A DNA stretch of 1,321 bases from Naegleria gruberi. Lineage: Eukaryota. The notes beneath the pieces were generated by a model that was not told the DNA's origin, made no database searches, and was given only the letters and a program-made list of their open reading frames with translations. The stretch lies in NCBI GenBank assembly GCA_000004985.1, contig GG739447.1; one strand, 5' to 3'. The translations under genes were made by a program, and so were the position numbers. Each line of letters opens with the position of its first letter. Position 1 is the stretch's first letter. Below are positions 775-892 of the stretch, piece by piece.

Positions 775-892
775 GACACACTTACCTATACGTATTTTGA
801 AACCTTCTCAGTTTCAGCTATGTATGTTGCTATTCAAGCTGTCTTGTCCTTGTATGCTTCTAGAACTGGTTTTGGACTCTGGTAATGGTGTT
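775..892 (+). other. Best-preserved actin block, equivalent to actin residues ~117-159 including the phosphate-2 loop LDSGDGV, with an internal frameshift
   Basis: The frame-1 reading is open from 775 to 882 and translates as DTLTYTYFETFSVSAMYVAIQAVLSLYASRTGFGLW*. Nucleotides 817-861, gctatgtatgttgctattcaagctgtcttgtccttgtatgcttct, encode AMYVAIQAVLSLYAS exactly as in canonical actin, with yeast-preferred codons. Frame 2 from 872 reads LDSGNGV. Getting from ...YAS to LDSG needs a frame change because GGT, ACT and ATTGT are missing relative to GCTTCTGGTAGAACTACTGGTATTGTTTTGGAC. Confidence 0.8.

Follow-up and report, generated by a model that had tools for sequence, protein, structure and literature searches.

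A probable relic of conventional actin coding sequence within otherwise non-actin DNA

We analysed a stretch of 1321 nt with a GC content of about 31% (in the following, the window). By its setting, it resembles the nuclear DNA of a eukaryote that is rich in AT and in introns. The motif GTAAGT is observed six times where 0.59 occurrences are expected, i.e., at about ten-fold the expected number, and none of 200 dinucleotide shuffles reaches six; TTTCAG is found five times (1.5 expected). The GTAAGT sites are segregated by strand, with those on the minus strand (271-276, 780-785) left of position 786 and those on the plus strand (963, 1037, 1214, 1311) right of 962. This arrangement would suggest divergent spliced transcripts with an actin-derived piece (796-893) between them. 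On the plus strand, the interval from GTAAGT to TTTCAG at 1214-1275 (62 nt) has the look of a short spliceosomal intron. No match to the window was found by blastn and exact-pattern scans of phage, plasmid, viral-contig and prokaryote-genome collections, nor by an exact-pattern scan of JGI metagenome contigs. Exact-protein look-ups for seven ORFs of the window and a protein search using the concatenated ORFs found nothing either; the ORF at 119-472 alone led to a related sequence, on one ENA contig. The ciliate code (TAA/TAG read as Gln) was tried and does not discriminate: when only TGA acts as a stop, 2-556 stays open in frame 2, yet several other frames stay open as well, including one of 222 codons on the minus strand.

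The matching ENA metagenome contig (ERZ929261 k127_479049, 769 nt; run ERR1078381, study PRJEB11402; hereafter L001) shares a block of 322 nt with the window, i.e., window positions 81-402 are 100% identical to L001 positions 283-604, and both flanks are unrelated. Either the source genome holds the block as a repeat or recent duplication, or the assembly has branched here. Identity over 322 nt means that the source organism has been sampled independently. No mention of the study or run accession of L001 was found in the literature. L001 carries GTAAGT at 264-269, 19 nt before the shared block, and the block seems to begin within an intron of about 70 nt that ends in CTCACCAG (window 125-132). 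The window's open frame at 86-472 on the plus strand (128 codons, with the 117-aa ORF 119-472 inside it) exceeds 497 of 500 shuffles. ORF 119-472 belongs to no Pfam or NCBIfam family, and its only true relative among 1.84 billion representatives is the identical protein P0001 on L001. A second protein (P0002), found by exhaustive HMMER search, was rejected as a homologue, as it is a bacterial repeat protein whose E-value of 9.5e-4 arises from repeated weak matches. ORF 119-472 is probably a real terminal coding exon of a eukaryotic gene. A reverse-transcriptase-like motif seen by eye in L001 1-90 has no Pfam match and was discarded.

About 40 nt past the stop of ORF 119-472, positions 511-555 (plus strand) form an inverted repeat of 16 bp without mismatch, with a loop of 13 nt (AACTCAATATCAAATT / AATTTGATATTGAGTT), and a third, direct copy of its arm, 86% similar, lies at 590-611. 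The fold of 500-620 has a z-score of -4.5, with none of 200 shuffles folding as well. The structure may represent a hairpin at a 3' end or else a small repeat element. For the translation VVIRIKFIEDQIDLIESFDPIAES of 553-672 (plus strand), a Pfam match to UvrB_inter (E=0.0028) was rejected, since its 18.2 bits fall below the cut-off of 22.9 and the match is absent in PDB and NCBIfam; it is probably a chance hit in a translation rich in I, D, E and F. A reading of the window as a mosaic of fragments from several genes was dropped as well, as its sole candidates, i.e., UvrB_inter and the reverse-transcriptase-like motif, are unsupported. A tRNA scan of the window returned none. On the minus strand, 999-1071 gives a full-length but sub-threshold match to C/D-box snoRNA models, the best being RF00533 (snoMe18S-Gm1358; 26.7 bits versus a gathering threshold of 50, E=0.02 for the whole window). 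The stretch has a C box AUGAUGA and a D box CUGA, but neither a conserved guide region nor a special fold. Since the match overlaps TTTTCAG on the plus strand, the snoRNA and the splice-site reading cannot both be real.

The actin-derived piece consists of two segments in different frames of the plus strand. Segment A (796-870) is read in frame 1 as FETFSVSAMYVAIQAVLSLYASRTG and corresponds to actin residues 124-150 according to the PDB search, the alignments and nhmmer. It has the form FETFSVSAMYVAIQAVLSLYAS-R-T-G, that is, it lacks Gly146 and one of Thr148/149, and it carries the substitutions N128S and P130S. Segment B (872-893) is read in frame 2, where LDSGNGV (872-892) corresponds to actin residues 153-159, i.e., phosphate-binding loop 2. 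In actin, residues 124-159 form the strand that leads into this loop (LDSGDGV). Compared with one reference actin locus (L005), 23 of 24 bases of segment B match, and the sole mismatch, G to A at 884, lies in the codon AAT (884-886). This codon encodes Asn at the position of actin Asp157, where all eight reference actins have GAT, such that the change from Asp to Asn given in a preliminary description of this DNA is borne out. The same holds for its assignment of YAS-R-T-G to frame 1 and of LDSGNGV to frame 2, on which both translations agree.

The switch of frame occurs at a single orphan T (871), a remnant of the Ile151-Val152 codons within the run TTTT at 870-873. Positions 853-892 read TAT GCT TCT AGA ACT GGT, then T, then TTG GAC TCT GGT AAT GGT GTT; the earlier transcription "ggt tt ttggactct" contains one T too many. 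Translated through this region, frame 1 of the window gives FETFSVSAMYVAIQAVLSLYASRTGFGLW up to a stop codon (in longer form TYFETFSVSAMYVAIQAVLSLYASRTGFGLW and stop). Frame 2 gives MLLELVLDSGNGVLLADF and, in full to its stop, KPSQFQLCMLLFKLSCPCMLLELVLDSGNGVLLADFDDKLYPSLLHKYHSQLLKCKYHD, which is the mechanical ORF 797-979 (TTG start, 60 codons). Its first 25 codons are segment A read off-frame, followed by LDSGNGV and a non-actin tail of 29 codons; the start had been recognised as an off-frame reading of FETF..YAS that runs into the actin frame at LDSGNGV, and the translations agree with this. We looked for a Pfam match, a protein homologue and a called-gene record for ORF 797-979 and found none of them. 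In frame 1, the ORF at 820-885 (MYVAIQAVLSLYASRTGFGLW and stop) begins at the Met132 codon and ends at a TAA produced by the frame break. Upstream, frame 1 is shut by TGA TAA at 766-771, and there is no ATG ahead of the Met132 codon at 820.

The homology to actin was assessed on protein and DNA level. With phmmer against PDB chains, the frame-1 peptide matches actin residues of about 124-148 with an E-value of 2.6e-6. FETF, V and AMYVAIQAVLSLYAS are identical, and 20 of the 22 residues over FETF..YAS agree. For the Pfam family Actin (PF00022), the frame-1 peptide scores 17.8 bits and the frame-corrected peptide 15.7 bits, both under the gathering threshold of 27 bits. A search among 5.8 billion proteins with the frame-corrected piece plus the tail returned zero scoring candidates, where the word index of that search apparently fails to fetch actins from so short a query. 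To obtain reference DNA, JGI metagenome contigs were scanned for the codons of AMYVAIQAVLSLYAS (pyrimidine-ending and TTG choices), which provided eight contigs (L002-L009), each with a complete, uninterrupted actin reading frame. A DNA profile built from these eight coding sequences matches 796-893 with an nhmmer E-value of 2.7e-20.

In all eight pairwise DNA alignments, and in a multiple alignment with the same references, the window is exactly 11 bases short inside 859-872, as the preliminary description had proposed for this motif, with 81-90% identity over the ungapped columns. The gaps are of 3+3+5 bases with respect to L007 and L009. For L007, the best reference (89.6%), they correspond to GGT, ACT (AAC in L007) and ATTGT, i.e., to the parse given earlier. 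Within the window, these losses equate to GGT after 861, ACT near 865-867 and ATTGT after 870; nhmmer parses the same zone as 6+5, and either way it is 11 bases short compared with every actin coding sequence. The three deletions are packed into 14 nt, and there are none across the other 84 nt of the piece. Such clustering is odd for neutral decay and might reflect a single complex event or a problem of sequencing.

We also studied how far the homology extends. Run with filters off on both strands of all 1321 nt, the nhmmer profile yields nothing beyond the single match at 796-893. Likewise, three complete actins were used as tblastn queries (word size 2, E-values up to 100), and no other part of the window scores below E=0.2. 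Actin thus covers 98 nt, about 36 of 375 codons, between non-actin flanks of 795 nt (upstream) and 428 nt (downstream). An upstream extension (NPxA...) was considered and rejected, as it appears in one gapped tblastn alignment with L007 only and gets no support from nhmmer. Of the elements of a full-length actin domain (phosphate 1, connect 1, phosphate 2, adenosine, connect 2), the window does not hold the complete set, nor does an uninterrupted frame run via GRTTGIVLDSGDGV with Gly146, Thr148/149, Ile151, Val152 and Asp157 in place.

On the downstream side, the homology stops at codon 160 (893) and is followed by TTGCTTGCTGAC. The tail LLADFDDKLYPSLLHKYHSQLLK (894-962, plus strand) is open in frame 2, with a GC content of 39% and a GC content at third codon positions (GC3) of about 50%. 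It has no PDB match up to E=10 and no homologue among 5.8 billion proteins, and when its 29 codons after LDSGNGV are compared with the eight actins, the best local score is equalled by 261 of 1000 shuffles. A reading of 894-979 as a farther part of actin beyond a big internal deletion was rejected on these shuffles and because nhmmer stops short of it. An 11-nt match of the tail to the ALDFDEE region of L007 and a likeness to SLxxxY seen by eye were also set aside, as they are no better than shuffles. The fragment plus tail has 39% GC versus 26-29% in the flanks, and the open frame 2 of 67 codons is mildly unusual (in 38 of 500 shuffles the third-longest open frame is at least equal). The raised GC and the open frame leave some coding use possible. 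Directly after the tail, GTAAGT...TTTTCAG at 963-1008 (46 nt, plus strand) forms an intron-like interval, the splicing of which would end the frame-2 ORF at T/AA.

From these observations, we consider it probable that 796-893 is a decayed, non-functional relic of conventional actin coding sequence (codons 124-160) that stands alone in non-actin DNA. The piece has significant homology to a functional family on DNA level, it is truncated against unrelated sequence on both sides, and it shows a frameshift and the loss of invariant residues, which is what characterises a gene relic. The loss of 11 bases within a zone of 14 takes away four conserved residues and shifts the frame, and D157N comes in addition. 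The preliminary description had reported a frameshift inside the most conserved actin motif. Its local anatomy is confirmed, but its framing as a break within an actin gene is not: the homology is confined to 796-893 and the flanks are non-actin, so there is no actin gene here for a frameshift to break. Moreover, the piece is cut off on both sides, so its disabling cannot be put down to the frameshift. It does not function as actin, and ORF 797-979 arises as a side effect of the frame break.

As to its origin, a short part of actin, taken from the gene or from a transcript, may have been duplicated or inserted into unrelated DNA. It could have served as filler in DNA repair, been captured by a mobile element, or survived as the last piece of a larger duplicate. 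The missing GGT, one unit of a tandem ACT ACT, and ATTGT between GT..GT may each have been lost by slippage or microhomology deletion, and D157N would have been acquired by the fragment as a further lesion. No parent actin gene was recovered for the source organism, so that both the exact lesions and the age of the fragment are estimated from the actins of other species, the best of which is 89.6% identical.

Compared with conventional actin (PF00022, residues 124-159 in alpha-actin numbering), the piece agrees in 20 of 22 residues over FETFxVxAMYVAIQAVLSLYAS and in 6 of 7 over LDSGDGV, but differs in that it fails the Pfam threshold and lacks a complete domain, an uninterrupted frame and invariant residues. 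The references L007 and L009 (JGI Ga0256884_1020747 and Ga0256889_1018394) share with the window the unusual Ser128-Val129 (FETFSV) and the AGA codon for Arg147, but they differ by a complete, uninterrupted actin frame of 370 residues in which GRNTGIVLDSGDGV is intact. Neither was accepted as the parent of the fragment, given the low identity (89.6%) and the unrelated flanks. These two contigs are near-identical to each other and encode a divergent, intact actin (e.g., GKPNQKTMIVMDNRSTFIGGEAQ, GRNTG, VPVESGYALHHAM).

Actin pseudogenes are known, among them the processed ACTB/ACTG pseudogenes of mammals and truncated ones in Dictyostelium, and eukaryotic genomes commonly carry short, disrupted pieces of genes that, like actin, are abundant and present in many copies. 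The fragment resembles the known actin pseudogenes in being derived from the coding sequence of a highly expressed multi-copy gene and in that it is disabled by indels and has a conserved residue replaced. It is, however, much shorter than typical processed pseudogenes. The poly(A) or mRNA 3' end of a processed pseudogene is absent, as no A-run follows codon 160, and a repeat search (seed 8, which short or decayed repeats may escape) found no direct repeat that would bracket 796-893 as a target-site duplication. Its features agree with those of gene relics and pseudogene fragments, a broad and familiar class.

As an unlikely alternative, the frame break could be an artefact of sequencing or assembly. 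Here, one T of the run TTTT at 870-873 would be overcalled, and the true sequence would be an in-frame chimeric exon that includes the actin-derived piece (YASRTGLDSGNGVLLADFDDK). The frame break does sit in a 4-base homopolymer, one T fewer would fuse frame 1 (open from 772) with frame 2 (open to 976), and the composition of the tail is codon-like with a GC3 of about 0.5. A homopolymer error had been named beforehand as what might undo the frameshift; as an error it is conceivable, but of the 11 missing bases it would explain one at most, and the other 10 to 12 fall into at least two separate gaps outside homopolymers. Even after correction, Gly146, a Thr, Ile151 and Val152 would be absent from the product, D157N would be kept, and there would be neither actin on either side nor a start codon before Met132. 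Furthermore, runs of four T are seldom miscalled on short-read platforms, and the name of the related contig L001 (k127_...) suggests a short-read de Bruijn assembly.

Slightly less probable than an overcalled base is a chimeric contig, in which unrelated loci, possibly from different organisms, are joined at or near the actin piece. The 100% identity between window 81-402 and L001 283-604 with wholly different flanks points to repeats or graph branching, and actin is conserved enough among co-occurring eukaryotes to share k-mers. However, if actin k-mers had caused the join, normal actin should continue to one side or to both, while both sides are non-actin. Assemblers do not make internal deletions and substitutions either, and composition and GTAAGT density are alike left and right of the piece.

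Less probable again is that a new spliced transcript has co-opted the piece into one of its exons, either as coding sequence in frame 2 or as non-coding sequence, or that the piece lies antisense within a minus-strand transcript. The exon would have TTTCAG (812-817) as its acceptor and GTAAGT (963) as its donor; the antisense version would involve the donor at 780-785 and small RNAs against actin. In that case the exon is no longer read as actin, so the frameshift would be irrelevant. Splice-like motifs do flank the region on both strands. On the plus strand, the potential 3' splice site TTTCAG (812-817) lies inside the piece at two non-canonical residues (TCA GTT TCA G), i.e., the two departures from canonical actin are what produces the motif TTCTCAGTTTCAG; on the minus strand, the consensus donor AG/GTAAGT (780-785) lies 10 nt left of the piece. 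In addition, frame 2 is open over 818-962, a region with 39% GC versus 26-29% in the flanks. On the other hand, Ser128 is present in the real actins L007 and L009, so that selection for splicing is not needed to explain it. The frame-2 peptide has no homologue among 5.8 billion proteins and no Pfam or PDB match, and if 963/1008 were spliced, the ORF would terminate where the exons meet. The specific version with an exon of about 818-962 in a young spliced gene read in a new frame, or with an antisense part of a minus-strand transcript (donor 780-785) giving rise to small RNAs against actin mRNA, we regard as very unlikely.

Finally, a programmed +1 ribosomal frameshift inside an actin-like gene is extremely improbable: the shift from frame 1 to frame 2 at GGT-T-TTG is indeed +1 and the zero frame stops four codons on (TAA 883-885), but there is no N-terminal part of actin, no upstream start (766-771 is closed) and no actin downstream, four conserved codons are gone as well, the overlapping ORFs do not jointly encode one coherent protein with an upstream start, and the site has no stop or stall codon as found in the established +1 sites (Euplotes AAA-TAA/TAG, yeast CUU-AGG-C, antizyme UCC-UGA).

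On its own, the probable actin relic matters little, and its practical value lies in annotation. That is, ORF 797-979 does not merit annotation as a protein, even under an "actin-like" call, and the contig should be treated as eukaryotic DNA from a metagenome, neither prokaryotic nor viral. Should the recruited exon nevertheless turn out to be true, the locus would provide a small example of the reuse of conserved coding sequence in a new frame.
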